From: an uncultured Candidatus Saccharibacteria bacterium
Lineage (GTDB): Bacteria; Patescibacteriota; Minisyncoccia; Phycocordibacterales; UBA9973
Length of the DNA stretch: 64,000 nt
Direction: 5' to 3'
NCBI GenBank assembly: GCA_964544225.1
Contig: CAZIZK010000001.1
Location: forward strand, 207,477-271,476
The notes below the pieces were generated by a model, which made no database searches, was not told the DNA's origin, and saw only the letters and a list, made by a program, of their open reading frames with translations. Of the stretch, positions 4,699 to 25,063 are shown one piece after another (position 1 is the stretch's first letter; every line of letters starts with the position of its first letter). A program made the translations under genes and the position numbers.

Positions 4699-6039
4699 AT
4701 GGATAAAAACCCACGAAAAAGTAAAGCTCTCGTAATCACCTTTGTACTAGTACTAGGCCTATTAATAGGTATGTACTTTGTATTTACGAGTGACACCTTG
4801 TTTGGGGTGAACAATAGTGTTGGTAAGAAGTTCTCGCCATTCCTGATAACCCCAAAGGAGAAGGACTTGAACCTAGTAGAGGACCCAAATGCAATCAATA
4901 CAGACAATTCAACAAATACAGATACTGATAATCCGGACAACAATACAAACCCAGATGGTGGCCTTATCGCAGGGGGTAATGACTTCTCGGGTAATGTTGG
5001 TAGTGGTGGTGTAGGCACTGGTATATATATGAACCCGGCTGGTGGGTCAGTTGCCTTACCTGGTGGTAGGGGGACTATAACACCTTCGAACTTCGTAGCA
5101 CAATGTAAGGATGGTAGGGATAATGATGGGGACAGTCTTGTGGATACATCCGACCCAGGCTGTCATACAGATGGTGATGCAACAAATGCAAAAAGTTACA
5201 ACAAGGATCAGTATCTAGAATACAACTTTATACCAGCATGTAGCGACGGAGTAGACAATGATAAAGATAAGCTGATAGATGATAAAGATCCCGGCTGTCA
5301 TAGTGATAACAATGCGAAGAATACAAAGACTTATACACCCAATTACGGATATGAATCCGATAACCAACTGACCAAAGGCAGCTCTTCTGGCGAGTGTACT
5401 GTCGACGACCTGCCACTCATATTTACAGCAGAGGAACAGGCACAGCTCGATGAGCTGACTCGCCAGTTCTACCGCCTAGCACCAACACTGAAATCAATAG
5501 ATGATATATTAGTAGAAGAAAAAGCAAGACAAAGCTATATAGACATAACAGATAATGCAAACACTCTGACAAATGAATGTTACGAGCAAACATACAATGA
5601 TAAATACTTGGCAAACAGTGGTGTTGTTATAACAGAAGGACATGAGCAATTAAATACACGATTTGATCATAAAGAACAAAAAACGCCTTATACTGGTGAC
5701 ACGAAAGTATCAATAGACACAATGGTGCCTTATTTGTGGGATAATAACAAAACATTATTAACTGGAATGCCCGGACTAAACAATGCTACACAAATCCCTA
5801 TATATGATTATGCAAGCAAGAGCTGGATTAACAAGGGTAGGACAGAAAGACGAGGGAACCCTTATATTGATTTAAAACCAACATCTTCCTACTGGCAAAT
5901 ATATGAAACCAAAACAAATGCAAAGAATGGGGACAACGGTGTATATGTAAACCATCGTGGTGATGTATGGAACAATACTCCGATAGGTAATGCTTACTTC
6001 CCTTGGGCTGATTGGGAAAATATGATGGGTATATGGTAG
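4699..6039 (+). CDS. Membrane-anchored protein with two Cys-flanked Asp-rich repeats (C-x-DG-x-DND-x-D...DPGCH), putatively calcium-binding and thrombospondin-type-3-like.
   Basis: N-terminal TM helix. Duplicated motif CKDGRDNDGDSLVDTSDPGCH / CSDGVDNDKDKLIDDKDPGCH. Confidence 0.5.
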   Translation: MDKNPRKSKALVITFVLVLGLLIGMYFVFTSDTLFGVNNSVGKKFSPFLITPKEKDLNLVEDPNAINTDNSTNTDTDNPDNNTNPDGGLIAGGNDFSGNVGSGGVGTGIYMNPAGGSVALPGGRGTITPSNFVAQCKDGRDNDGDSLVDTSDPGCHTDGDATNAKSYNKDQYLEYNFIPACSDGVDNDKDKLIDDKDPGCHSDNNAKNTKTYTPNYGYESDNQLTKGSSSGECTVDDLPLIFTAEEQAQLDELTRQFYRLAPTLKSIDDILVEEKARQSYIDITDNANTLTNECYEQTYNDKYLANSGVVITEGHEQLNTRFDHKEQKTPYTGDTKVSIDTMVPYLWDNNKTLLTGMPGLNNATQIPIYDYASKSWINKGRTERRGNPYIDLKPTSSYWQIYETKTNAKNGDNGVYVNHRGDVWNNTPIGNAYFPWADWENMMGIW

Positions 6040-6115: not shown

Positions 6116-8878
6116 GTGAAGAAATTCTTGCCATACATTTTAATACTAGTTGTTGTCGTGAACCTCCTCGCGCCATTTAGTGTTGTATGGAAGGATAATC
6201 AACTCCCAAAAATCGCAAAGAATGAAGCAAAGGCAGAAGCTAACCGTTTTCCTGGAAGTAGTATTAAAACAAATGACATGTTGTCTGGGGGTGTTGACGG
6301 ACAATCTGTTAGTATTGATTTCGAAATAATACTAGATACTGGGTTAAAAAGTGGAGATGATACATCTGGTATATGGGATGATATACAACATGTAGGAGTA
6401 TGGAACCCGCTTACTACAAATAGTTTTGATGAGAAATCTTTTTGGTTAGAAATAATAAAAGCAGACTCAACAACTGTTATACCTGATACTTATATTGTTT
6501 CAGATAGTAATTTGGCAAACGATGGTTATGTAAGTTTAACTCGTCCATTATTAGGGAATAAGGTTGGTAACAATCTGGGGCAAGACTGGATAGATAGTTA
6601 TCCAAACGGGCCATCTAAAATTAAAATAGATTATCTAATTGGAAATAAAAGTCAGGGGTATCCTATTGATACTATAGATAATTTAAAACCTGATACAGAA
6701 TATTTAGCTAGGGTAATATACTACTTAGATGGTAATGCTGTACCTAACACGATGGCAGAAGTACGTTTTAAAACACCTGCTCCAACAAAACTTGAAGGGA
6801 AAATTGGTGATGGTAAAACATTAGTAGAGGGGGGTAAATTATTATTACCAGGATGTGAGATAATACCAGACTTTGATGACGGGACGAGCTTCTCTGGATG
6901 TTTTGTGCAGTTAGCTTATTGGGGTTTATATGCTCCGACTGCATATTTGTTTGGTTTAGCTGGAGTATTTTTTGATGCTGTTTTTAAATATTCAATAGAT
7001 GATTCCTCTTATAGAACTACATTTGTTACCCAAGGTTGGGCTATTGTACGTGATATGTGTAATATATTCTTCATATTTGTACTACTATATGCTGCATTCA
7101 AAATGATATTTGGTTCACACGGTGCTAAATCTGTAATTGTTAATGTGATAATTATAGGCTTGTTAATAAACTTTAGTCTACTAACAACCCAAATATTAGT
7201 AGACACTTCAAATATTCTAGCTAGGTTATTTTACAATTCACAAGCAATAAAAATAGAAACAGACAATGCATCTGGGGCTGTAACACACGGGGGACAAAAT
7301 TTAACTGAAAATTCAGGTAATAATCAGATATCTCTTTCATCTGCATTAATAAATAAAATAAACCCGCAGAACCTAATCCTCAGTGCTAGTAAAGTAACTG
7401 TTTCAGACGATGCTGGTCACACTGGTACAGCTTCTGCAACAGACGGGATAGGTGTAGGAGGATACTTCTTAGTAATATTTTTAGCCTCTATAGTAAACGT
7501 AATCGGCTTCTTTGTATTTATATCAGTTGGTTTAATATTTGTGGCCCGAGTTGTTAGTATTTGGATGGCTATGGTATTTGCACCCTTTGCATTCTTTAGT
7601 TATACAGTACCAGCACTTTCGAAAGCAAAAATTATCGGTTGGAAGAACTGGTGGAGTGACTTACTAGGTATTTGTTTTATTGCCCCACTATTCATGTTCT
7701 TTATGTATTTAATAATATTATTCCTAGAAAAAGGATTTGCGAACTTTCTTGATAGTACAAAGAATGGACCAAACTTCGTATTGGGTATCATTATTCCTTT
7801 TGCTTTCATTATGATTTTGCTTTTGACTGCAAAGAAGTTAGCAAAAGAATACGCAGGCTCTATTGGTCAAACTGTTACCGGTGCGGTAACAGCGGTCGGA
7901 GCAGCAGCACTCGGTGGTGCAGCGTTGGGTGCAGCAGTAATAGGAAGAAATACTGTTGGGTCTCTTGCAAAATTTACACAAAATGACGGTGCGAGAAAAA
8001 ATGCCTTAACATATCAAAATACGCAAAATGCGGCAGCTAAATTAAAAGGTTGGGGTGCAGTAAATCCATTTAATTATCTTAAGGTAGCAGGAAGTGCTGT
8101 AGGAGATACAGTAAAACTACCTGCGGCAAGTGCTGGTTATTTAGCTTCTAGGATTGGAAGAAAGAAAGATCCGCATACAGGGAAAGAAACAAGCTGGTTC
8201 CAAAGAGAGGGTTCAAAAGTTGTGGATAAAAGTCATGCAGCACATGTACTTGATGAAAAAGCACAAGCATTGAAAAATGATAAATCAGCTACATATAAAG
8301 ATCTTACTGATGATGAAAAGAAAACTGTACGTGAAAGAATAGACAGAGATATCGTATCCAAAGAAATGCATAATAAAGTGTATGAAAAACTTAATGGAAC
8401 AGAAAGAGCTAATGTCGATGGCATGAGAGTAGCAGGAGATCCAAATGGTGAGTGGTCTCAGGGAGCAAATATGGCAAAAGGTGTTGCCGCTACTAGAGGT
8501 GATCATGTTCACACTTCAGAAGATTTGGGTAAGGCAGTAAAAGTAGATACTGCTGTAAGTGAGTTTGTAAATGCACTGAGAAAAGGTAGTTATGATGTAA
8601 GAAATCTATCAAAAACAAAATCAGTAAGTGGTGGTTTAGCAAAACTAGGAGTTGGCCTTGCTGCATCTGTTGCATTAGGTGTTAGATCGGGTCTTAAATC
8701 ACTGGTTGGTATTAACCATGGAACAGGTCAAAAAGATGTCATGAAAGACTTAAAGGATGTTTTAACAGAAGCATTGAAGGGTGTGAAAATTCAGATGCCT
8801 AGTGGGGGAGGTGACCATGGAGGAGGGCATGATGATCACGGTGGTGGGCACGATGACCATGGTGGAGGGCATCATTAG
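6116..8878 (+). CDS. VirB6/TrbL-like polytopic inner-membrane T4SS channel protein (920 aa) with a large N-terminal extracytoplasmic domain and a C-terminal hydrophilic tail ending in a His-rich repeat.
   Basis: Multiple central hydrophobic helices (AYWGLYAPTAYLFGLAGVFF..., IFFIFVLLYAAF..., VIIIGLLINFSLL..., YFLVIFLASIVNVIGFFVFISVGLIF..., etc.). C-terminus is GGGDHGGGHDDHGGGHDDHGGGHH. Sits beside a VirB4 ATPase gene. Confidence 0.5.
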   Translation: MKKFLPYILILVVVVNLLAPFSVVWKDNQLPKIAKNEAKAEANRFPGSSIKTNDMLSGGVDGQSVSIDFEIILDTGLKSGDDTSGIWDDIQHVGVWNPLTTNSFDEKSFWLEIIKADSTTVIPDTYIVSDSNLANDGYVSLTRPLLGNKVGNNLGQDWIDSYPNGPSKIKIDYLIGNKSQGYPIDTIDNLKPDTEYLARVIYYLDGNAVPNTMAEVRFKTPAPTKLEGKIGDGKTLVEGGKLLLPGCEIIPDFDDGTSFSGCFVQLAYWGLYAPTAYLFGLAGVFFDAVFKYSIDDSSYRTTFVTQGWAIVRDMCNIFFIFVLLYAAFKMIFGSHGAKSVIVNVIIIGLLINFSLLTTQILVDTSNILARLFYNSQAIKIETDNASGAVTHGGQNLTENSGNNQISLSSALINKINPQNLILSASKVTVSDDAGHTGTASATDGIGVGGYFLVIFLASIVNVIGFFVFISVGLIFVARVVSIWMAMVFAPFAFFSYTVPALSKAKIIGWKNWWSDLLGICFIAPLFMFFMYLIILFLEKGFANFLDSTKNGPNFVLGIIIPFAFIMILLLTAKKLAKEYAGSIGQTVTGAVTAVGAAALGGAALGAAVIGRNTVGSLAKFTQNDGARKNALTYQNTQNAAAKLKGWGAVNPFNYLKVAGSAVGDTVKLPAASAGYLASRIGRKKDPHTGKETSWFQREGSKVVDKSHAAHVLDEKAQALKNDKSATYKDLTDDEKKTVRERIDRDIVSKEMHNKVYEKLNGTERANVDGMRVAGDPNGEWSQGANMAKGVAATRGDHVHTSEDLGKAVKVDTAVSEFVNALRKGSYDVRNLSKTKSVSGGLAKLGVGLAASVALGVRSGLKSLVGINHGTGQKDVMKDLKDVLTEALKGVKIQMPSGGGDHGGGHDDHGGGHDDHGGGHH

Positions 8879-8914: not shown

Positions 8915-10162
8915 ATGGATCAACAACAATTACAACAAAAGATCGCTGAATACTTTAGCAAGCTTCCACCAAATGCTCAAGAGTATTTCGCCAAGATGGA
9001 TTGGATGAATACTCTGCAAACTATTGCAGGTAAATACCAACTGAATGAACAACAAGTGGCAAGCCTAGGTACTGAAACAACACTATTACTACTAGGTATA
9101 GTACACCCAGATGAATATACAAGTTTCCTAAAGAAAGATATGGCTATGGAAGATGGTACAAGTATTCAGATGTTCAACGAGATAGATACTCAGATAGTAG
9201 GTGGCTTGCGTGGCGACTTGGCAGATACACATATGAAGAATTCTATCGAGCTTGCCGACAAGGAATACGGTGGCAGTATGAAGCTCGATGAGAGGCTAGC
9301 AAGCCTACCTGATGAAGTGAAGGACGCAATAGTTAACTCAGACTATCAAGCCAAGCTTTATGCTATTGCCGGTAAATATAAATTGTCTATCGAACAGATG
9401 GGAATGCTGGAAAATATTACAAACAAAGTCATGCTCGGAGTATTGCACCCAGATGAATACGCGAAGAGTGTCGCGGACAAGCTGGGTATGCCAAACGACA
9501 AGGTAAATGAATTGGTAGGGGAGGTAAACGAAGGTGTGTTCAAGAATATCAGAGAAGGATTGAAGTCCTATATGGAAGTAAACAGTTCCACTCCTGAGGC
9601 CCCTGTTCCACCTTATGCGCCTTATGCACCTGCATCTAGTATGCCCGAGGTGGCAAAAGTAGAGTTACCTGCACCTATGACTAAGAGTACTATACCCGAG
9701 GCTCCAATACCTGCTTACAAACCTGCCCCTGATGCAATAGCAAATGTGGCTATACCTGTTGTAGCCCCTGAAGCAAAGATAGTTGTAGAAACAGCATTGA
9801 ACAAAACAACTCCTAAAGATGATTCCAACATACTATCTGGTGCTGGTATCGAAATGGTACAAGACATGAATAGTAATAACACTATGGGTAGCCAGCCAAA
9901 AGTATCGCCATTGGTGGAAAGGGGGTTCAACACTGCCGACAGGTTCATGGAATCAGGTATCGATGTAATACCAGACCGTGTTGCTGATAAAGTTTATTCA
10001 ACCAACTCTGCCACAGGTGCCGAGACCCTGTCAGGTATCAACAACCCTACAGCTGGTGTCAGTAGTATGCTTGCCGACAAATTAGGTAAAACAACAATCA
10101 ACCCAACTCCTATAATAAATCAAAGTCTTACAAAGGACCCATATAAGGAGGTAATAGAATAA
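8915..10162 (+). CDS. Hypothetical protein with an internally duplicated ~100-aa N-terminal module and a Pro/Ala-rich C-terminal half.
   Basis: Repeats ...LQTIAGKYQLNEQQVASLGTETTLLLLGIVHPDEYTSF... and ...LYAIAGKYKLSIEQMGMLENITNKVMLGVLHPDEYAKSV.... Three TTACGAAT octamers overlap the start codon. Confidence 0.5.
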   Translation: MDQQQLQQKIAEYFSKLPPNAQEYFAKMDWMNTLQTIAGKYQLNEQQVASLGTETTLLLLGIVHPDEYTSFLKKDMAMEDGTSIQMFNEIDTQIVGGLRGDLADTHMKNSIELADKEYGGSMKLDERLASLPDEVKDAIVNSDYQAKLYAIAGKYKLSIEQMGMLENITNKVMLGVLHPDEYAKSVADKLGMPNDKVNELVGEVNEGVFKNIREGLKSYMEVNSSTPEAPVPPYAPYAPASSMPEVAKVELPAPMTKSTIPEAPIPAYKPAPDAIANVAIPVVAPEAKIVVETALNKTTPKDDSNILSGAGIEMVQDMNSNNTMGSQPKVSPLVERGFNTADRFMESGIDVIPDRVADKVYSTNSATGAETLSGINNPTAGVSSMLADKLGKTTINPTPIINQSLTKDPYKEVIE

Positions 10163-10200
10163 ACATTAAAATCCCCACAATATGTGGGGATTTTAATGTT
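10162..10200 (+). terminator. Perfect 18-bp inverted repeat hairpin (aacattaaaatccccaca / tgtggggattttaatgtt) immediately after the stop of the 8915..10162 gene.
   Basis: Read directly: the reverse complement of the left arm equals the right arm, with a 3-nt loop. Only a weak U-tract follows. Confidence 0.5.
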
Positions 10201-10211
10201 ATAATATTTAT

Positions 10212-10613
10212 ATGCAATTTAAAGTTCCACAATTTATCGACATAGAGGACAAGTTATTTGGTCCTTTTACATTCAAGCAATTTACCTATCTGGCCGGAGG
10301 TGGGGGTTTGGTATATGTATTGTATAAATTGTTGCCTATATATCTAGCTATCCCACTGATCATACCGGTTGCAATACTAGCAGGATTGCTAACATTCTAC
10401 AAAATAAATGGCAAACCCTTCCTTTACTACCTACAAGCAAGTATTACATACGCGGTAAAGAGCAAGCTGTATGTATGGAAGCAACGTTTGGAAAAACCAG
10501 AAATGAAGAAAGAGGTTCCCAGCTTGCCCAACCAGACATCTGTTGTGCCTACGCTTTCAGGTAGCAGACTAAAGGATTTATCGTGGAGCCTCGATGTTCT
10601 GGATAAAAAGTAA
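10212..10613 (+). CDS. Small two-TM membrane protein, PrgI/VirB3-like (T4SS inner-membrane component).
   Basis: 133 aa with two hydrophobic helices (LAGGGGLVYVLYKLLPIYLAIPLIIPVAILAGLLTF). Sits immediately upstream of VirB4-like genes, as in Gram-positive T4SS operons. Confidence 0.4.
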   Translation: MQFKVPQFIDIEDKLFGPFTFKQFTYLAGGGGLVYVLYKLLPIYLAIPLIIPVAILAGLLTFYKINGKPFLYYLQASITYAVKSKLYVWKQRLEKPEMKKEVPSLPNQTSVVPTLSGSRLKDLSWSLDVLDKK

Positions 10614-10658: not shown

Positions 10659-11306
10659 ATGGCTCTGGATGCAAGAAGATCACAAGAATTTGTTCCAATA
10701 AAAGAAGTTCGCGATGGTATCATTATTTTAAAAGATGGTGGGCTTCGTGCTGTATTGGTAGCTTCTTCTATCAACCTATCTCTAAAGTCTAGCGACGAAC
10801 AGAAGGCGGTTATAGCCAACTTTCAAAACTTTCTAAACGGGCTCGACTTTTCTATACAGATAGTGGTCCAGTCACGTAGGCTCGATATCCGCCCTTATCT
10901 ACTAACTCTAGAAGAGAGGATGAAAGTCCAAGTAGAACCCCTGATCAAGATCCAGACAAAGGAATATATGGACTTTATCCAATCTTTTACAAATGAAGTA
11001 AACATTATGACAAAGAGCTTCTTTGTAGTGGTGCCATATAGTGGTAGTACATTTAAATCCGACGAGAGTATTGTCGAGAAGGTGTTAGATATGAAGAAGG
11101 CAAAGAAGGGTAGCACAAAGAAAGAGGAGGACCTAGCAAGTTTCGAGGAGAAGAGGTCACAATTGGACCAGCGTATTGCTATGATAAGCCAGGGTTTGGG
11201 TGGGTTTGGAGTTCGTAGTTCACAGCTTGGCACAGAGGAGATAATCGAGATGTTCTACAAGACATTCAACCCCGGTGATATTAGTCAGGGTATTAAATTA
11301 GAATAA
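10659..11306 (+). CDS. VirB4 N-terminal-domain-like protein (215 aa). Possibly the N-terminal fragment of a split VirB4.
   Basis: Pattern DGIIILKDGGLRAVLVASSINLSLKSSDEQKAVIANFQNFLNGLDFSIQIVVQSRRLD resembles the N-terminal region of Gram-positive VirB4/TraE-type proteins. It ends 7 nt before, and in a different frame from, the VirB4 ATPase ORF. Confidence 0.4.
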   Translation: MALDARRSQEFVPIKEVRDGIIILKDGGLRAVLVASSINLSLKSSDEQKAVIANFQNFLNGLDFSIQIVVQSRRLDIRPYLLTLEERMKVQVEPLIKIQTKEYMDFIQSFTNEVNIMTKSFFVVVPYSGSTFKSDESIVEKVLDMKKAKKGSTKKEEDLASFEEKRSQLDQRIAMISQGLGGFGVRSSQLGTEEIIEMFYKTFNPGDISQGIKLE

Positions 11307-11313
11307 TTATTAT

Positions 11314-13149
11314 ATGGGAATATTTTCATCAATTTTTGGCTCAAAGAAGACTGACACACCACAAGGCCGTGTTGTTTTACCTGTACTACCAAATGAAATA
11401 TACCAGGCGGCCACACTCGAACTCCAAGACATCATAGCCCCATCTGCGTTACAAATCAGTCCTAAATCACTGAACCTAGGCGACAAGATATCTCGCACAT
11501 TCTTCGTCATATCATACCCACGATACCTAACCGACAACTGGTTCTCACCAATCATTAACCTCGACAAGATATTCGATGTTTCTATATTTATACACCCTAT
11601 CGATACTGGGGAAATACTCCGCTCTTTCCAAAAGAAGGTGGCCGAAGTACAAAGTCAGATATCTATCCGTGAATCAAAAGGCCTCGTTCGTGACCCAATG
11701 CTAGACACTGCATACGGCGACCTCGAGGAACTTCGCAACAACCTGATGCAAGCCCAGGAAAAGATGTTCGATGTAGGCCTATATATCACTATCTATGCTG
11801 ATAATGAAGGCGAATTGTACAAAGCCGAAAACGAGATCAAATCACTACTAGAATCAAAGCTTATATATCTAAAGCCTGCACTTTTCCAACAAGAGGAGGC
11901 TTTTAAAAGTGCTATACCTACAGGCACCGACCTGCTAGAGATAGGGCAGAAATTAAATACTGAACCCCTTTCAAGCGTCTTTCCTTTTGTATCGTTCGAC
12001 CTTACTTCCGACAAGGGCATACTTTATGGAGTAAATAGGCATAACTCGAGCCTTATAATATTTGACCGTTTCTCACTACCAAACTATAACTCTATAACAT
12101 TTGCTACATCTGGTGCTGGTAAGTCATACGCTACAAAGCTCGAGATTATTCGTACACTCATGTTCGATACAGAAGTAATAGTTATCGACCCAGAAAGGGA
12201 GTACGAGTTCCTCGCTGAAGCTGTGGGTGGTAGGTATTTCAATATTGCCCTTTCTTCCGAGCACCATATCAACCCATTTGACCTACCGATACCTAGTGAG
12301 GATGAGACAGGTGCGGATGTCCTACGTTCCAACACTATCAACCTCGTAGGCCTATTCCGCATAATGCTCGGAGGACTAACTCCTGAGGAGGATTCCATTA
12401 TAGACCGTGCTATCACCGAAACATACGCACTCAAAGACATCACAGCCGAGAGCGACTTCCGTAACATCGAACCACCACTGTTGTCCGACTTCGAGATGGT
12501 TTTAGCCGGTATGGAGGGTAGCGAATCTGTAATACAAAGGCTTACTAAATACACTCGTGGAAGCTGGGCATCGTTCCTGAACCAGCCTTCAAATGTAGAT
12601 ATCAATAGGAAGTTCGTAGTGTTCTCAGTGCGCGACATGGAGGACGAGTTGAAGCCAGTAGCCATGTATATAGTCACACACTATATATGGAACGCGATAA
12701 GGAAGAACATAAAGAAACGTCTATTGGTGGTGGACGAGGCTTGGTGGATGATGAAGTCCGAGGACACAGCATCATTCCTATACTCTATAGCAAAGCGTGG
12801 CCGTAAATACTATCTGGGCCTTGCAACTATAACCCAAGACGTAGGCGACTTTATGAAGAGCCCGTATGGTATACCTATAGTTACCAACTCTTCACTCCAG
12901 TTACTACTGAAGCAGTCACCGTCAACTGTGGACCTATTGCAAAAGACTTTCAACCTAACCGATGAGGAGAAGTACCTACTGCTAGAAGCAAATGTAGGGG
13001 AGGGTATATTCTTTGCAGGACTCAAACACGTAGCGGTTAAAACTATCGCATCATATACCGAGGACCAGATCATTACATCTGACCCTTCGCAGATACTAGC
13101 TATAAAGAAGGCAAAGGATGATCTACTTTCGAACGAAACAGGGGCTTAA
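11314..13149 (+). CDS. virB4: Type IV secretion system ATPase, VirB4/TraE/TrsE family.
   Basis: Walker A FATSGAGKSYATK; Walker B LLVVDEAWWMM (the DEAW motif characteristic of VirB4). A CagE/TrbE-like region lies upstream of the P-loop. 611 aa. Confidence 0.8.
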   Translation: MGIFSSIFGSKKTDTPQGRVVLPVLPNEIYQAATLELQDIIAPSALQISPKSLNLGDKISRTFFVISYPRYLTDNWFSPIINLDKIFDVSIFIHPIDTGEILRSFQKKVAEVQSQISIRESKGLVRDPMLDTAYGDLEELRNNLMQAQEKMFDVGLYITIYADNEGELYKAENEIKSLLESKLIYLKPALFQQEEAFKSAIPTGTDLLEIGQKLNTEPLSSVFPFVSFDLTSDKGILYGVNRHNSSLIIFDRFSLPNYNSITFATSGAGKSYATKLEIIRTLMFDTEVIVIDPEREYEFLAEAVGGRYFNIALSSEHHINPFDLPIPSEDETGADVLRSNTINLVGLFRIMLGGLTPEEDSIIDRAITETYALKDITAESDFRNIEPPLLSDFEMVLAGMEGSESVIQRLTKYTRGSWASFLNQPSNVDINRKFVVFSVRDMEDELKPVAMYIVTHYIWNAIRKNIKKRLLVVDEAWWMMKSEDTASFLYSIAKRGRKYYLGLATITQDVGDFMKSPYGIPIVTNSSLQLLLKQSPSTVDLLQKTFNLTDEEKYLLLEANVGEGIFFAGLKHVAVKTIASYTEDQIITSDPSQILAIKKAKDDLLSNETGA

Positions 13150-13188: not shown

Positions 13189-14178
13189 GTGAAAAAAAGG
13201 TTGCTACAACTTACACTATTAATACTTATCCTAGTAAGTATTATGCCTATGTCTATAAATGCCGAGGCTCTTCAGGTAACATCTGCAGATATAAATATCG
13301 AGACAATACCCGACAACCCACAGCCCTATACTGACGTAACTATGACTATCACAAGTTATGCAACCGACCTAAATAAGGCCCTAATAACATGGAAGAGTGG
13401 TGACGACACTATACTATCGGGTATTGGTCGTACTAAATACGTTTTTAAAACAGGTGCTCCAAATATCAATACTTCCTTTACAGTATCTATAACACCAGCA
13501 GGGAGCTTTGCTTCTGTTGAAAAGAGCTTTGTAATCAGCCCTTCGGAGGTAGAGATGCTGTGGCAAGCCATTGACTCTTATACACCACCATTCTATAAGG
13601 GCAAGAGCTTCCCCACATCTGAGGGGTCAGTGCGTATTGTAGCTATGCCAAACACTGTGGGTATATCTAGTGGTAGTAACAAAAGTATGGCGTACTATTG
13701 GAAGCTGAACTACGATAGCGCCCAGGATGCATCGGGGTATGGCAAGGATTCCTTTACCTACAAGAACAGTTATCTAAATGATACCGATCATATTGGGGTA
13801 TCGGTATCTACAACCAATGGTTCCTACACAGGCAATGGCACAATAGACATACCTATGTACAATCCAGAGATGATCTTCTACAAGAAGTCTCCAACTGAAG
13901 GTATAAAGTACAACGAGGCTGTAACAGGCGAAGTCTACATGAATGAGGACGAGATGACTCTTGTAGCGGAGCCATACTTCCTAAACAATTCAAACGGTAC
14001 AAATGATCTAACTTATAAATGGAAGATAAACAACAACGACATCAGTACACCACGCAACCCTCGCGAACTGACAGTCCGCCCTACATCACGTGGGGGATAC
14101 GCCAACATAAATATTTCTATAAGTAGTATTAGTAAACTATTCCAAAACATTAATAAGTCTATAAAAATTAATCTGTAA
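13189..14178 (+). CDS. Secreted hypothetical protein (signal peptide) in the T4SS-like island.
   Basis: N-terminal MKKRLLQLTLLILILVSIMPMSINAEA signal. 329-aa ORF. Confidence 0.5.
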   Translation: MKKRLLQLTLLILILVSIMPMSINAEALQVTSADINIETIPDNPQPYTDVTMTITSYATDLNKALITWKSGDDTILSGIGRTKYVFKTGAPNINTSFTVSITPAGSFASVEKSFVISPSEVEMLWQAIDSYTPPFYKGKSFPTSEGSVRIVAMPNTVGISSGSNKSMAYYWKLNYDSAQDASGYGKDSFTYKNSYLNDTDHIGVSVSTTNGSYTGNGTIDIPMYNPEMIFYKKSPTEGIKYNEAVTGEVYMNEDEMTLVAEPYFLNNSNGTNDLTYKWKINNNDISTPRNPRELTVRPTSRGGYANINISISSISKLFQNINKSIKINL

Positions 14179-14183
14179 AAATA

Positions 14184-14611
14184 ATTAATGAAAAAAATAT
14201 TATTAATAATATTTATAGCAATAGCATTTTTAGGAAATTTTAATATTTCAAGTGCTGAATTCTTGGACCCTATACAAACACAAGCTGTACAAGAAGACTA
14301 TAGTTTATTGGCACCAATTCCAGGTGTAAATAAAATAGATAATACGAATACACTAGGCACATATCTTAACTTTTTCTTTAAATTCGCTATATCTGTGTGT
14401 GCTGGATTGGCAGTACTTATGATAGTTATATACGGGGTACAGTATATGGGAGATGGGTCAGTATTTGGCCATACAGAAGCAAAGAGTAAAATAGGTTCTG
14501 CTATTATGGGATTATTGTTAGCACTTGGTGCATATGCACTACTAAATACTATTAACCCAGATCTGGTGGGGAGTAATGGTATAAAGATTAAACAGGTGAC
14601 GATAAAACTCC
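14184..14611. repeat. Direct repeat copy 1 (~428 bp, 100% identical to 15100..15527). It covers the 5' 141 codons of the first hydrolase-like gene plus 4 bp upstream.
   Basis: Nucleotide-by-nucleotide comparison of the two segments in the sequence shows no difference. Divergence begins right after ...gtgacgataa. Confidence 0.85.
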
Positions 14612-15099
14612 AGTCGATGGATATCCCTCAAGAAGTACAAAAAGATGGAACATATGTTGGAACAACTTATAAAAAGGGTGAAATTTGGCCAGACGATCAA
14701 AAAACAAGAGATGACTTAAAAAAAATAAATATTTCAGTTTCTCCAACAAAATGCACAACAGTAGGACAAAGTGGTTGTACAACTGTTTACGGATTAAACA
14801 CTGCTTTTGTTTCAAAGTTAAAAACAACTTGCCCAACTTGTGATATAACCATAACAGAAGGTACTGGATTTTGGAAACACATAGCTAATGTGTATAAAAT
14901 ACATTATCCGGGTGGGTGGACTGTAGACATGCGTCAAACAACAACACTTTCTACATTTATACACTCAAAACCAAAAACTCCTTTTAGTTGGGGAATTTGT
15001 TATGATATTGGTAATGGTTTAGGTATAGTGGAAGAAAAAGACCATTTCCATGCATTTAGCTTAACAGGTGGATGTAATACTTCTAAGCAAGGTGTTTAA
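14188..15099 (+). CDS. Membrane-anchored putative peptidoglycan peptidase (LAS/M15-like zinc peptidase signature). N-terminus has a signal peptide plus two hydrophobic helices, i.e. VirB2/TrbC-pilin-like topology.
   Basis: The N-terminal 141 aa are shared identically with the next gene. The C-terminal domain has H-x7-D (IHYPGGWTVD) and HxH (DHFHAF) spacings reminiscent of LAS-family D,D/L,D-peptidases. Tentative. Confidence 0.5.
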   Translation: MKKILLIIFIAIAFLGNFNISSAEFLDPIQTQAVQEDYSLLAPIPGVNKIDNTNTLGTYLNFFFKFAISVCAGLAVLMIVIYGVQYMGDGSVFGHTEAKSKIGSAIMGLLLALGAYALLNTINPDLVGSNGIKIKQVTIKLQSMDIPQEVQKDGTYVGTTYKKGEIWPDDQKTRDDLKKINISVSPTKCTTVGQSGCTTVYGLNTAFVSKLKTTCPTCDITITEGTGFWKHIANVYKIHYPGGWTVDMRQTTTLSTFIHSKPKTPFSWGICYDIGNGLGIVEEKDHFHAFSLTGGCNTSKQGV

Positions 15100-15527
15100 T
15101 AATATGAAAAAAATATTATTAATAATATTTATAGCAATAGCATTTTTAGGAAATTTTAATATTTCAAGTGCTGAATTCTTGGACCCTATACAAACACAAG
15201 CTGTACAAGAAGACTATAGTTTATTGGCACCAATTCCAGGTGTAAATAAAATAGATAATACGAATACACTAGGCACATATCTTAACTTTTTCTTTAAATT
15301 CGCTATATCTGTGTGTGCTGGATTGGCAGTACTTATGATAGTTATATACGGGGTACAGTATATGGGAGATGGGTCAGTATTTGGCCATACAGAAGCAAAG
15401 AGTAAAATAGGTTCTGCTATTATGGGATTATTGTTAGCACTTGGTGCATATGCACTACTAAATACTATTAACCCAGATCTGGTGGGGAGTAATGGTATAA
15501 AGATTAAACAGGTGACGATAACTCTTT
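15100..15527. repeat. Direct repeat copy 2 (~428 bp, 100% identical to 14184..14611).
   Basis: See copy 1. Confidence 0.85.
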
Positions 15528-16213
15528 CTCCAGGTCAACAATACAGATTGTCTGAAACCCAAGCCACAACAAAAAAGTTTGCTAGGACTAAATACTATGA
15601 CACAATAAAAGCAACTGCTGCAAAAAAGGAGTACAACATTCCACACTGTTTGTTGCAAGTTGCAATACAAAGAGAGTCTGGTGGGGTAGCAGGTTTAGTT
15701 GGTCACGACGAAGAAGCTCCTGCTTTTGGTATCCCGTCCAGAAAGAATTTTGTAAATTCAGGTAAAAAGTATAGCGGGACAACATTTACATCTAGCCAAT
15801 CATTAATAACAGACAGGGGGTTCCATAACGACGATCATAAGGGAAATAATTTATTCTCTGCTTCCAAGCCAACAGCTGTTGATTTAGGGTTGGATTGGCG
15901 ATATTCACATGCAATAGGTATGTTTGGGGTAACATTTTACCCAGCAGGGGAAAGTTATGGTGATTATACTAAAGGTATATATATGGTAATATTAAAAAAG
16001 ACAGTCTTCCCAAAAGATTTGTTTAATACTAATACAGATATATTAGTAGCTGCTGAAATGATGAGTAGTAACTACAAACTTTGTAATAATAATGTGGAGC
16101 AAACATATAGGAAATATGGCTCTGGTCGTTGTGATGGGAGTAATGCATTTACTAATGTAGAAGCCCCTCTTAGAAAGAATTTATACGATCAGTGCGTAGC
16201 TCAAGATAAATAA
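15104..16213 (+). CDS. Membrane-anchored putative lytic transglycosylase (VirB1/SLT-like) sharing its N-terminal module with the preceding gene.
   Basis: Identical N-terminal 141 aa. C-terminal region IQRESGG...AIGMFGV resembles the SLT catalytic Glu and GLMQ-type motifs. The ORF-track start at 15068 is an upstream extension; the true start is inferred at the conserved MKKILL (15104). Confidence 0.5.
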   Translation: MKKILLIIFIAIAFLGNFNISSAEFLDPIQTQAVQEDYSLLAPIPGVNKIDNTNTLGTYLNFFFKFAISVCAGLAVLMIVIYGVQYMGDGSVFGHTEAKSKIGSAIMGLLLALGAYALLNTINPDLVGSNGIKIKQVTITLSPGQQYRLSETQATTKKFARTKYYDTIKATAAKKEYNIPHCLLQVAIQRESGGVAGLVGHDEEAPAFGIPSRKNFVNSGKKYSGTTFTSSQSLITDRGFHNDDHKGNNLFSASKPTAVDLGLDWRYSHAIGMFGVTFYPAGESYGDYTKGIYMVILKKTVFPKDLFNTNTDILVAAEMMSSNYKLCNNNVEQTYRKYGSGRCDGSNAFTNVEAPLRKNLYDQCVAQDK

Positions 16214-16214
16214 A

Positions 16215-17537
16215 ATGAAAAAAACAATTATCATTATAATACTTATACTAGCCACCGCAGGTGGGACACTTTGGTATATACAAAGTAAACAAGCTACAAA
16301 TAATACGAGTACCACTGACACTGGTACAGGATTTTTGAAATCTTTCTTTTCTTTCAATCAAAACAATACTTCAAACACAACAACTGATACTAACAGTACA
16401 GATGGCACAGGCACTGATACGGAAACAGGGGATGCAACAGATACCGAAACACCAAATACCACAAATACTAATAAACTTGTTCAAGTAACTGACTTTCCAA
16501 TATCAGGCCTTGCTAGCTTTATCGACACACGCCCTCTACCAGAAAGTGCTATCCCAGTAACAACTACACCAGTAAAAGATGCAAAGGGTAAGATTGTGCA
16601 GGCAAAAGTTATAGCCCCATCAGTCGAATCTGTATCTGCATTACGATATGCAGCCCGTGCAAATGGCCATATATATAGCCAGTACCTAGACACTGGTGCA
16701 AGTGCAAAGATATCTAACGCAACCATTCCAAGTATTTACGAAACATATTTCGGTGACAATGGTAAGGCTGTGGTGTATAGATACCTAAACAACAACGACC
16801 AAACTATCCAAACATTTCTAACACATACCGATGGGTCAAAGGGTGACTTTCTTCAGGAAGATATCTCTGGTATTGCAATATCACCAGACAGTAATTCACT
16901 CTTCTACCTGGCACCGCTTGGTAGTAATGTGGCAGGGTACTATATGAACTTTAAAGACAACAACAAGATACAGGTATTCACATCTGCATTTACCGAGTGG
17001 CTACCACAGTGGGCAGGGACTTCTACTATATTCCTAACTACAAAGCCTTCTTGGGACACTGTAGGCTCTATATACGCTACAAATATTGGGAAGAACAACT
17101 TTATAAAAGTATTTAGTGGGTTAAAAGGTTTAACGACTCTTGCATCTAATAATGCAGCCAATATCCTATATAGCAGTACTTCCAATATTGGCCCCGAGCT
17201 CGGTGTATACAATATCGACAAGCATGAGTTCACAAAGCTACCTGTAAGAACACTCGCAGACAAATGCGTATGGAGTCGTGATGGAGTACGTGCATATTGT
17301 GCAAAGCCAAATAATATAGAGGGTAATAAGTACCCAGACAATTGGTACAAAGGAATCGTGTCATTTAATGACAGTATTATATCTATAGACACTGCTAACA
17401 AATCATACTCTACTTTAGTAAATACAGAAGATGTACAAGCAATAGATGCGATCAACCTAACACTTTCCCAAGACGAGAAGATATTGTTCTTCTTAAACAA
17501 AAAAGACTCCACAATGTGGAGGCTAGACCTAGAATAG
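16215..17537 (+). CDS. Membrane-anchored protein with a Thr/Asp-rich linker and a possible beta-propeller (TolB/PD40-like) C-terminal region.
   Basis: N-terminal TM (IIIIILILATAGGTLWY), low-complexity TDT repeats, and recurring SPD/SRDG-type motifs. Weak assignment. Confidence 0.45.
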   Translation: MKKTIIIIILILATAGGTLWYIQSKQATNNTSTTDTGTGFLKSFFSFNQNNTSNTTTDTNSTDGTGTDTETGDATDTETPNTTNTNKLVQVTDFPISGLASFIDTRPLPESAIPVTTTPVKDAKGKIVQAKVIAPSVESVSALRYAARANGHIYSQYLDTGASAKISNATIPSIYETYFGDNGKAVVYRYLNNNDQTIQTFLTHTDGSKGDFLQEDISGIAISPDSNSLFYLAPLGSNVAGYYMNFKDNNKIQVFTSAFTEWLPQWAGTSTIFLTTKPSWDTVGSIYATNIGKNNFIKVFSGLKGLTTLASNNAANILYSSTSNIGPELGVYNIDKHEFTKLPVRTLADKCVWSRDGVRAYCAKPNNIEGNKYPDNWYKGIVSFNDSIISIDTANKSYSTLVNTEDVQAIDAINLTLSQDEKILFFLNKKDSTMWRLDLE

Positions 17538-17545
17538 GGGATAGA

Positions 17546-17577
17546 AAAAGAGGAGACTAAATCTCCTCTTTTTCTTT
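17546..17577. terminator. Bidirectional hairpin (aaaaagaggagactaaatctcctcttttt) between convergent genes.
   Basis: GC-rich stem flanked by A/T runs on both sides, between the 16215..17537(+) gene and the 3' end of jag(-). Confidence 0.55.
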
Positions 17578-22558: not shown

Positions 22559-25063
22559 CTACTCTACTTGCATTACAACTTCAGCTACACCAGTGTTACC
22601 ATAAGAGTCATATATTAGGGCTCTTATTTTATTTATATTAGATACACCAGGGATTTCGCTCGGGGTAATAGAGAATGTTCCAGGAGTTGAACGCATAGAT
22701 GTTATATATGAATTATTCATAAAAATATCTATCTTTTGTATTGGTATAGAACTTGTAGATGTTACTGTAAAATTTTGCTTTGTAGATTTATTGTAAACAA
22801 CACTTTCGTCTATTCCAGATATATAAACAACAGGTTTACTGTTGTTTGTGTGTATTGTGTCGTAAGTTGTTGGTATATCAGTATTTGTTATTATTGGGTA
22901 TTTGTGTTTATTGTTGTTCCACCATTTCTGCACCCCGTACTCCCACCGACTGTATTGTGAGTCACTTTCTGGGTTATTTGGTTTACCACCTGTTGGATTG
23001 TTTTTATTGATCCAATACAGTATTGTGTGCACGTTTGTAACCGATGTTTCCTTCTTTGTTGACTCTGGAGTATTAATTGTTGCAAGTTTGCCAGAGATAG
23101 TGTCTATTGTAAATGTATCACCACCTTGCCAGTAGCCACGTAGTATTGGTGACAGATTGTTGTCTATTTGGTCTGGTTTATTAAAGCTACCTCCTGGGTA
23201 CAATATTGAACCCTCTGTTATTATTTTGTTCCATATTGGACCCGCAAGCGCCGCACCACCTTTCTTCATTGGAGTATTTTCGTTATTACCAACCCAAGCA
23301 CCCACAACAATAGATGGGGTATAACCAATAGTCCAAGCGTCTTTGTTGTTGTTTGTTGTACCAGTTTTTACTGCACTTGCAATACTACCTGTGTACAAGC
23401 TCGAGTGCGTACCAAATGTGGGCACACGAGCCGAGTCATCTGACAAGATGTCAGATATTATCCTTGTTGTGTTTACTGGTAGAACAGTTGAATTATTGTC
23501 GGTGTATTCTTCCATCTTTACACCCTCTTTATTTTCAACTGAAAGTATACCCGTGTATGGGTGGCGGATACCCTCGGTAGCAAATACTCCATAGGCAGAT
23601 GTCATATCAAGTAGACTTACCTCACCACCTCCGATCACAAGTGATAGACCATAACGAGTCGGGTCATTTAGGCTGGTTACACCCATGTCGTGTGCAAGCT
23701 TGATAGAGTCTGTTACACCGACAAGATACAACAACTTCACAGCCACAACGTTGATAGATTGTGCTAATGCATCACGTAGACTAATCGGCCCTCGGAAAGC
23801 GTTATCATAGTTGTCAGGCATATAACAATTTGTTTTAGTGTTACCTCTCAGTGGGTTACCAACAGCATCACAAGAGTCTGAGAACTGGGTTTGGACATCG
23901 AACAACACAGTCTTCTCGGTATAGCCATTATTAAATGCGAGTGCATATACAAAAGGCTTGAATGATGAACCTGGTTGCCTCTGGGCTGTTACCACATTGA
24001 AGTTACCCTCTATTTCCTTGTCGAAATAATTGCGTGAACCAACCATAGTTAATATTTGGCCGGTCTTTGAATCTATTACTACTGCTGCAGCGTTCTTACC
24101 ATTTGCACTTTTCTCATTTTCTTTTGCTGCTTGTGCAACTATTGCCTCGGCCTTTTCTTGGAGCTTTGTATCTATCGTTGTTATAACTTTCAAGCCACCA
24201 ATATCCAAAGCTTCAGCACCATACTTATTCTCTAAGTAATCTTTTATAAAGAATACAAAGTGTGGAGCCTTTATATTTACTGGTTGTTCTGGTAGAAAGA
24301 CAACAACTTCGTTCTTTGCTTTTTCATAATCTGCACTGTTTATGTAACCCAAGTCCAACATTCTTTTTAGAACCAAGTTCTTTCTGTTGTCTAATTCGGC
24401 CTTGTGTTTTCTGTATGGTGAGTAGTATGTAGGGGAGTTAGGTATAGCAGCCATGTATGCAGATTCTGCTAGGGTTAGGTCTGCTGGTTTCTTACCAAAG
24501 AACATTCGGGATCCTTCTTCTACACCATAAACAGTTCCTCCATAAGGAGCTTCGTTTAGATAAAGACTCAATATGTCGTCTTTACTCATAATACGCTCAA
24601 GTTTTATAGCTAGTATCCACTCCTTTACCTTTCTTGTTAGAGTTTTTTCTTGGGTTAGAAGAGTGTTCTTTATAAGTTGCTGAGTTATAGTTGAGCCACC
24701 TTGTACTTTACCACCGAGGAACCGTGTCCAGACTGCTCGTATAATAGATGTGATACGTATGCCTTTATGGTTATAGAATTCAGAGTCTTCGATGGCTATA
24801 GTTGCGTTCTTTATGTAGGTACCCATTTCATTGTATGGGATTACAGTACGTCGGATATCTTTGTGTACATCGTATAGAAGTATTTGGCCTGTGCGGTCGT
24901 ATATCTTGGTAGAGTTAGCTACTTTTCTGTCGGTAAAGGATTTGAAATCTGGAAGCTGAAGAGTACTCAATAGTATTATTAATAATCCAAGGAATAGACA
25001 TATTGCCCCTCCTACAAGCATAAGCCAGAAGCCTTTTTTATGAGATTGTTTATTTATTTTCAT
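22559..25063 (-). CDS. mrcA: Class A penicillin-binding protein (PBP1A-type bifunctional transglycosylase/transpeptidase) with an extra C-terminal domain.
   Basis: N-terminal TM. GT51 region (RIMSKDDILSLYLNEAPYGG). Transpeptidase motifs SSFKPFVY (SxxK), SRN and KTGTT. Confidence 0.9.
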   Translation of the reverse strand: MKINKQSHKKGFWLMLVGGAICLFLGLLIILLSTLQLPDFKSFTDRKVANSTKIYDRTGQILLYDVHKDIRRTVIPYNEMGTYIKNATIAIEDSEFYNHKGIRITSIIRAVWTRFLGGKVQGGSTITQQLIKNTLLTQEKTLTRKVKEWILAIKLERIMSKDDILSLYLNEAPYGGTVYGVEEGSRMFFGKKPADLTLAESAYMAAIPNSPTYYSPYRKHKAELDNRKNLVLKRMLDLGYINSADYEKAKNEVVVFLPEQPVNIKAPHFVFFIKDYLENKYGAEALDIGGLKVITTIDTKLQEKAEAIVAQAAKENEKSANGKNAAAVVIDSKTGQILTMVGSRNYFDKEIEGNFNVVTAQRQPGSSFKPFVYALAFNNGYTEKTVLFDVQTQFSDSCDAVGNPLRGNTKTNCYMPDNYDNAFRGPISLRDALAQSINVVAVKLLYLVGVTDSIKLAHDMGVTSLNDPTRYGLSLVIGGGEVSLLDMTSAYGVFATEGIRHPYTGILSVENKEGVKMEEYTDNNSTVLPVNTTRIISDILSDDSARVPTFGTHSSLYTGSIASAVKTGTTNNNKDAWTIGYTPSIVVGAWVGNNENTPMKKGGAALAGPIWNKIITEGSILYPGGSFNKPDQIDNNLSPILRGYWQGGDTFTIDTISGKLATINTPESTKKETSVTNVHTILYWINKNNPTGGKPNNPESDSQYSRWEYGVQKWWNNNKHKYPIITNTDIPTTYDTIHTNNSKPVVYISGIDESVVYNKSTKQNFTVTSTSSIPIQKIDIFMNNSYITSMRSTPGTFSITPSEIPGVSNINKIRALIYDSYGNTGVAEVVMQVE

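Follow-up and report, generated by a model that had tools for sequence, protein, structure and literature searches.

Chromosomal type IV secretion systems (T4SSs) located near the replication origin are known in Patescibacteria (PMC12102498). In these bacteria, VirB2-like pilins of the PF18895 family are encoded by virB4 and near dnaA, by genes that stand in tandem or one gene apart, and the arrays comprise 2–11 small and divergent pilins, with a mean amino acid identity of 25% and a maximum of 54% (PMC12102498; PMC10633639). The literature on Patescibacteria T4SSs also indicates that an association of VirB1 homologues with virB4 is seen chiefly in Paceibacteria. A second group of described proteins, the VirB1-like hydrolases of Gram-positive T4SSs – PrgK of pCF10, TraG of pIP501, CwlT of ICEBs1, and TcpG – are membrane-anchored, encoded in the T4SS cluster, and cut both glycan and peptide, with both domains carried on one polypeptide behind a simple transmembrane anchor. 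Here, we analyze two adjacent genes, A and B, in a 64-kb stretch of DNA (contig CAZIZK010000001.1; hereafter, the window), which begin with one and the same T4SS pilin module and end in two different domains predicted to degrade the cell wall. It is probable, in our view, that A and B encode pilin-anchored, polymorphic VirB1-like wall hydrolases of a chromosomal T4SS, and that their modules are kept identical by recombination.

The two genes and their parts are the following:

14188..15099, plus strand: gene A, 303 amino acids, pilin module and A-type C-terminal domain (open reading frame list)
15104..16213, plus strand: gene B, 369 amino acids counted from the ATG, pilin module and B-type C-terminal domain (open reading frame list)
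14188..14605, plus strand: repeat copy 1, signal peptide and two-helix VirB2-like pilin module at the start of gene A
15104..15521, plus strand: repeat copy 2, identical signal peptide and pilin module at the start of gene B
14606..15096, plus strand: A-type C-terminal domain, about 164 amino acids, Cys-rich, with invariant C, C, C, GGTExW-H, H-x7-D, E, and HxH
15522..16210, plus strand: B-type C-terminal domain, about 230 amino acids, lytic-transglycosylase or goose-type-lysozyme fold, with a RESGG motif that holds the catalytic Glu

By a repeat search and a base-by-base comparison, positions 14188-14605 and 15104-15521 form an exact direct repeat of 418 bp, which begins with the ATG of both genes and stops at the end of the two-helix pilin module. 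An earlier reading of this DNA, made without database searches (the sequence-only reading), had placed both open reading frames correctly, as the open reading frame list confirms, and had described 425 bp and 141 amino acids as identical. The shared 5′ part is indeed exact, but it amounts to 418 bp, or 139 codons and a single further base: at residue 140, gene A has K and gene B has T, and both have L at residue 141. Past codon 139, the similarity between the genes is at background (26–50% per 60-nt bin), and on the other side it reaches 5–7 nt upstream of the ATG if one gap is allowed. Gene B is longer in the mechanical open reading frame list, where it runs from a GTG at 15068; we place its start at the ATG at 15104 because this start is identical to that of gene A. 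An exact repeat of this length in a 64-kb window with a guanine-plus-cytosine content of 39% cannot have arisen by chance. A scan with a hidden Markov model (HMM) of the module found these two copies only in the window. Genes A and B are separated by 4 nt, and gene B is separated by 1 nt from the next gene, dn440. NCBI records identical to the products of gene A (P0015) and gene B (P0003) exist, both from a contig of 344,230 bases. Both repeat copies also contain a promoter-like TTGGCA-17-TAAAAT element (10/12 matches; 14308-14336 and 15224-15252); promoter-like sites in this region are no more numerous than in shuffled sequence, and those inside the repeat are probably due to chance. An Rfam scan of the window returned tRNAs elsewhere and nothing more.

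The shared part consists of a signal peptide (residues 1-23), about 35 exported residues, and two transmembrane helices (approximately residues 60-85 and 103-121) joined by a short loop, as deduced from hydropathy, and the module ends in ...LLNTINPDLVGSNGIKIKQVTI. The T4SS_pilin family PF18895 matches the proteins of gene A (19.8 bits, E 8.7e-4) and gene B (20.5 bits, E 5e-4), as well as 56 of 62 gene A homologues at E <= 1e-3 (best 1.4e-11), and the TrbC/VirB2 family PF04956 matches seven of the 62. The module HMM, built in this analysis with jackhmmer, recognizes the window module at E 7e-39. In addition, genes of VirB3 and VirB4 type belong to the same cluster, with PrgI, TrsD, and VirB4 encoded 1–4 kb upstream on the same strand. 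At the family level, these matches support a firm assignment of the module as a predicted VirB2/TrbC-like T4SS pilin, in agreement with the sequence-only reading, which had recognized a signal peptide and two hydrophobic helices of VirB2/TrbC type.

The C-terminal domain of gene B is a glycan cutter, by predicted activity, of the lytic-transglycosylase/lysozyme fold. Its fold is alpha-helical and lysozyme-like, and in the motif QVAIQRESGG the putative catalytic Glu is conserved in at least 90% of 12 aligned sequences. A precomputed match to PF01464 exists for two homologues. The initial label of this end as SLT/VirB1-like is upheld as regards the lysozyme-like fold and the catalytic Glu of the E-S motif, but not by the Pfam profile, since gene B itself scores below the curated cut-off of PF01464. 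An insert of about 70 amino acids (15700-15910, residues ~200-270) is specific to the family and carries an invariant DLGLDWRxSH. The insert also has conserved GHDE and SR motifs, and its AlphaFold model is poor.

The A-type domain is likely, but unproven, to be a zinc peptidase with the fold of Hedgehog/DD-peptidases (LAS) and with the peptide part of the wall as its substrate. In 63 aligned sequences, the cysteines, GGTExW-H, H-x7-D, and E-x2-H-x-H are invariant. The H-x7-D spacing is one residue longer than that of the M15 zinc-ligand pattern, which we take to be H-x6-D ... H. The earlier description of this end as LAS/M15-peptidase-like is consistent with the invariant H-x7-D and HxH, but there is no profile link to M15 or VanY: when the A-type domain was compared by hhalign with the VanY and M15_4 domains that occupy this slot in related loci, the probability was below 1%. 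The domain has no sequence match in Pfam, NCBIfam, or PDB, and PDB sequence searches with both C-termini, as single sequences and as profiles, returned nothing meaningful. Its structure model is confident, with a pLDDT (predicted local distance difference test) of 90.4; fold-comparison scores were low, and Foldseek against PDB gave no significant result. Homologues were collected with a profile made from ten locus-derived sequences, as a query with the single C-terminus gave two relatives only, without itself. They number 74 proteins, of which the complete ones have about 280–330 amino acids, and most carry PF18895; in these searches, the A-type domain was found only as a pilin fusion or in incomplete fragments. 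Two uncharacterized domain families are defined in this way: the A-type, with 74 members, and the B-type, an SLT variant with the DLGLDWRxSH insert.

Related loci were gathered in two sets. A VirB4 search provided 80 loci from metagenome-assembled genomes of the Paceibacteria/Nomurabacteria type, with VirB4 75–97% identical. A scan with an alignment of the module provided 73 further metagenome loci; a query with a single module had given low-complexity matches only. The order VirB4, up329, pilin-module gene, dn440, jag is kept in nearly all of the 80 loci, and across about 150 related loci a pilin-module gene occupies the slot between up329 and dn440, which in the window are as follows:

13189..14178, plus strand: up329, secreted protein encoded immediately before the slot, conserved and in synteny in nearly all related loci; no confident Pfam match
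16215..17537, plus strand: dn440, conserved membrane-anchored protein directly downstream of the slot (synteny, junction sequences)

Each pilin-module gene is built of a variable N-terminal extension (40–480 amino acids), the module (about 85 amino acids, ending in ...NTINPxL), and a C-terminal domain that is variable as well. These C-terminal domains, hereafter cargo, belong to at least 12 unrelated clusters and are mostly peptidoglycan enzymes. Among those named by Pfam are NlpC/P60 (16 loci), VanY (8), YkuD (5), Peptidase_M15_4 (3), SLT_2 (3), SLT, 3D, and Amidase_2; also present are the A-type (11), the B-type (5), a cluster without assigned family (4), coiled coils, and an SLT_3-like group that scores below the Pfam cut-off. 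Cargo in the 73 metagenome loci comes from the same pool. Cargo types are scattered across the VirB4 tree, and the closest relative of the window, L004 (VirB4 97%), has neither A-type nor B-type cargo. In L001, gene B stands alone in the slot (orthologue P0004), and in L002 gene A is followed directly by dn440. In L004 (12906-14360), as well as in L009, L011, and L053, the C-terminal domain belongs to cluster 5, which has the motif ...AQAFFEGFYPGS...NNPGNIG... and is without a Pfam match.

The exchange of cargo is precise. L107 and L109 come from one metagenome, and their flanks match at about 91% identity on either side. The difference is confined to the stretch between the module end and the stop codon, where one has an SLT_3-like and the other an NlpC/P60 domain; homology is back at the stop codon, and in this comparison no gene travels with the swapped domain. 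Similarly, L101 and L112, with flanks about 90% identical, differ from module end to stop codon only, by an SLT_3-like versus a B-type domain. The cassette-like organization proposed by the sequence-only reading is supported by these two swaps and by the distribution of cargo over the VirB4 tree, and it is far more general than that reading could reveal. The N-terminal extension can be replaced too, as observed in L150 (5363-5908) compared with L152 and L154, the flanks being about 93% identical; there are thus two exchangeable ends around a constant module.

Such an extremely fast turnover of cargo in close relatives, while the rest of the locus is conserved, could also mean that the fusions are weapons or tools directed at a bacterial or archaeal host. 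The pilin module would then take the enzyme to the T4SS pilus or to the contact site, where it would breach the host wall, and the polymorphic C-termini would track host wall chemistry, much like those of polymorphic toxins. The pool does span glycan, stem-peptide, and cross-link specificities, and in most related loci no stand-alone pilin was found within +/-10 kb. Moreover, the T4SS and its pilins are essential for the epibiotic growth of Southlakia (PMC10633639), proteins with a T4SS-pilin domain rank among the genes of unknown function with the highest expression in archaeon-parasitizing Patescibacteria (PMC10936435), and a role of lytic transglycosylases in compromising host envelopes has been proposed (PMC11665869). 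We nevertheless regard a host-directed role as possible but rather unlikely. The producer makes peptidoglycan itself, since a class A penicillin-binding protein (PBP) is encoded at 22559-25063, and yet no cognate immunity gene accompanies the cargo; besides, a domain of 160–230 amino acids on every pilin subunit would probably hinder the packing of a filament. The producer's own peptidoglycan and the lack of an immunity gene fit self-remodeling, whereas rapid turnover of specificity, essentiality of the T4SS and pilins, and high expression of pilin-domain proteins are more easily reconciled with a target that varies, as host walls would.

Two pilin-module genes are present in seven loci or contigs – the window, L020, L053, L067, L069, L101, and L132 – or about 5% of loci. 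In all seven, the modules of one genome are 98–100% identical at the DNA level, whereas modules from different genomes reach 73% at most, with a median of 55% (2998 pairs). The tract of identity ends at the 3′ end of the module, with unrelated C-termini beyond it, in six of the seven; in the exception, L132, identity continues through the C-terminal domain and it is the N-terminal extensions that differ. The position of the tract varies:

Window, L053, and L101: identical tract from the gene start
L020: internal tract of 720 nt, N-terminal flanks about 50% identical
L067 and L069: internal tracts of about 400 nt, N-terminal flanks about 50% identical

The internal tracts require recombination limited to the module; simple gene duplication does not produce them. 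Between the window and L002, the module DNA differs by 16%, as do the flanking genes; the module is therefore not unusually conserved, and the absence of any difference over 418 bp indicates a very recent event. Duplication and gene conversion are both compatible with the window, which alone does not decide between them. A single very recent event, without ongoing homogenization, would suffice if the copies are too young to have diverged and the arrays are short-lived. It could have been a tandem duplication followed by replacement of the cargo, or an unequal crossover, within one population, between an A allele and a B allele at the ATGAAAAAAA microhomology. The start of identity at the gene start in the window, L053, and L101 is what a duplicated unit would give, microhomology is found at the junctions, relatives carry the single-gene alleles (A alone before dn440 in L002, B alone in L001), and two genes are seen in so few of the loci. 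This scenario appears doubtful to us, though conceivable, because seven of seven arrays so young would require a high rate of birth and death, and because the internal tracts of L020, L067, and L069 are incompatible with duplication of a whole unit.

Could the tandem arrangement or the perfect identity be an artefact of assembly, for instance strain alleles of module-A and module-B stitched together? The 418-bp repeat exceeds the k-mer length that assemblers typically use, the related examples were assembled from short metagenomic reads, and assemblies do break at the module: in L055, a run of N follows directly after it (7122-7221), and the contig of L002 begins inside it, which fits repeats or strain polymorphism at this place. 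However, the junction between the stop of A and the start of B (GGTGTTTAATAAT followed by ATGAAAAAAATATT) is unique, with only about 10 nt in common with other gene starts, so that it offers no shortcut in the assembly graph and must come from reads. The 64-kb window has no N. The same architecture was recovered in six other independent assemblies, and in three of these arrays (L067, L101, and L132) the copies differ by 1–8 positions, which indicates that the assemblers resolved them separately. We consider an artefact very improbable.

Genes A and B belong to a conserved operon-like unit of seven genes, the remaining elements of which are listed here:

10162..10200, no strand assigned: strong hairpin of 18 pairs, upstream boundary of the seven-gene unit (PrgI to dn440)
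10212-10613, plus strand: PrgI/VirB3-like gene (Pfam, NCBIfam)
10659-11306, plus strand: TrsD-like gene (Pfam, NCBIfam)
11314-13149, plus strand: VirB4 ATPase gene, CD1110 family (Pfam, NCBIfam)
17543..17575, no strand assigned: strong hairpin of 14 pairs, between the convergent dn440 and jag, at the downstream end of the unit

On the plus strand, the order is PrgI-TrsD-VirB4-up329-A-B-dn440, with the same synteny in about 80 genomes. No terminator is present between A and B, and the seven genes are presumably co-transcribed. The two hairpins that bracket the unit are unusually strong and readable on both strands. The unit is flanked by ksgA on one side and by jag, yidC, rnpA, dnaA, dnaN, and the class A PBP gene on the other. 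The sequence-only reading had spoken of a T4SS-like island; what is found instead is the conserved, oriC-proximal chromosomal T4SS of Patescibacteria, between ksgA and jag-yidC-rnpA-dnaA, and a mobile island is ruled out by this conserved synteny adjoining dnaA. VirB4 is split over two adjacent genes, one for a TrsD/TraC-like protein of 215 amino acids, which corresponds to the N-terminal part of VirB4 models, and one for an ATPase protein of 611 amino acids; L001 shows this split as well. Two large proteins without a Pfam match, of 988 and 920 amino acids, are encoded ahead of the T4SS core at 1720-4686 and 6116-8878, and L001 has a 1325-amino-acid protein in a similar position. Within the gene cluster on the T4SS side, 4699-6039 encodes a protein of 446 amino acids that matches the NCBIfam model 'acidic double-disulfide repeat' (E 8.6e-15).

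Taken together, A and B would be paralogous components of a Gram-positive-type chromosomal T4SS in an ultrasmall bacterium of the Paceibacteria, within the candidate phyla radiation (CPR). Each protein would be exported by its Sec signal peptide and then inserted into the membrane through the VirB2/TrbC-like two-helix module, so that, by analogy with VirB2 topology, the C-terminal domain would probably lie outside the membrane. There, the product of gene B is predicted to cut glycan and that of gene A, most likely, peptide; together they might open the wall where the machine or pilus passes, as do PrgK, TraG, and CwlT. The module itself may serve both as an anchor or docking element and as a homology arm for the exchange of cargo. 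The slot between up329 and dn440 would be a recombination hot spot in which the catalytic end, from module end to stop codon, is swapped from a pool of at least 12 families. Duplicate modules could be made, or kept identical, by gene conversion or by unequal crossing-over between near-identical alleles with different cargo, and the identical tract would stop where homology stops. The start of dn440 and the start of the module have ATGAAAAAAA in common, which is a plausible crossover point.

Several observations speak against part or all of this explanation. Both window proteins fall under the curated cut-off of PF18895 (about 20 versus 26.6 bits), and PF01464 scores 16.1 bits on gene B against a cut-off of 21.3 (E 0.008). 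The paired loci all come from short-read metagenome assemblies, which are able to erase small differences between copies, and the '100%' identity should accordingly be taken as at least about 98–100%. A sub-clade (L058, L066, L073, L075, L081, and L082) has long coiled-coil C-termini and no enzyme domain, a poor fit to a purely hydrolytic role of the fusion. Finally, a fast turnover of cleavage specificity is hard to explain if only the producer's own wall is cut, the chemistry of which should vary little between close relatives.

A more far-reaching proposal, which we find unlikely but worth stating, is that of a pilin-templated cassette system. The module would act as a scaffold for export and display and, at the same time, as the homology arm by which wall-degrading domains, from a pool common to the whole population, are shuffled into the T4SS operon. 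Which host walls can be breached, and so the host range, would depend on the enzymes on display, while concerted evolution would keep the copies compatible with one pilus or machine.

The Patescibacteria T4SS is essential for epibiotic growth in the one species tested, and the loci described here link a T4SS pilin directly to predicted cleavage of peptidoglycan. Within an operon that is otherwise rigidly conserved, catalytic specificity changes fastest; this is a natural example in which cargo is exchanged but the module is kept constant and identical. About 15 small domains are now available as a defined set, and cargo type can be used as a marker against host identity in co-occurrence data. 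In the accessible literature, the coverage of which is incomplete so that an earlier description is possible, we came across no account of fusions between pilin and hydrolase, of polymorphism in their C-termini, or of identical modules.

How, then, does this locus compare with known systems? The pilin arrays described in Patescibacteria consist of small, divergent proteins, whereas the modules here are 98–100% identical in DNA and carry C-terminal enzyme domains. The sequence-only reading had compared the two genes with the two-domain hydrolases of Gram-positive T4SSs, and the comparison is reasonable; unlike these, A and B have one domain per gene and a VirB2-like hairpin as anchor, and the catalytic end varies between close relatives across at least 12 families. 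Polymorphic toxins such as CdiA, Rhs, WapA, and MafB also combine a constant N-terminus for trafficking with unrelated C-termini across a sharp junction, and have extra copies of the constant part, and a conserved N-terminus with unrelated C-termini in close relatives is found here as well. They differ in that here no immunity gene follows the variable domain directly (4 nt separate A from B and 1 nt B from dn440, and homology between L107 and L109 resumes at the stop), the cargo consists of wall enzymes and not of nucleases or pore formers, and the constant part is a T4SS pilin. A toxin-immunity pair was rejected, as there is no intervening open reading frame, and so was a silent-cassette system of the pilE/pilS type, as both genes are complete and have their own starts. 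Neisseria pilE/pilS and the VirB2 arrays of Bartonella and Anaplasma resemble the locus in having several pilin copies that recombine. In those systems, variation affects the exposed part of the pilin itself and is drawn from silent partial cassettes or divergent paralogues; in the present locus, the genes are complete and share a constant pilin part, and what differs is the appended enzyme.

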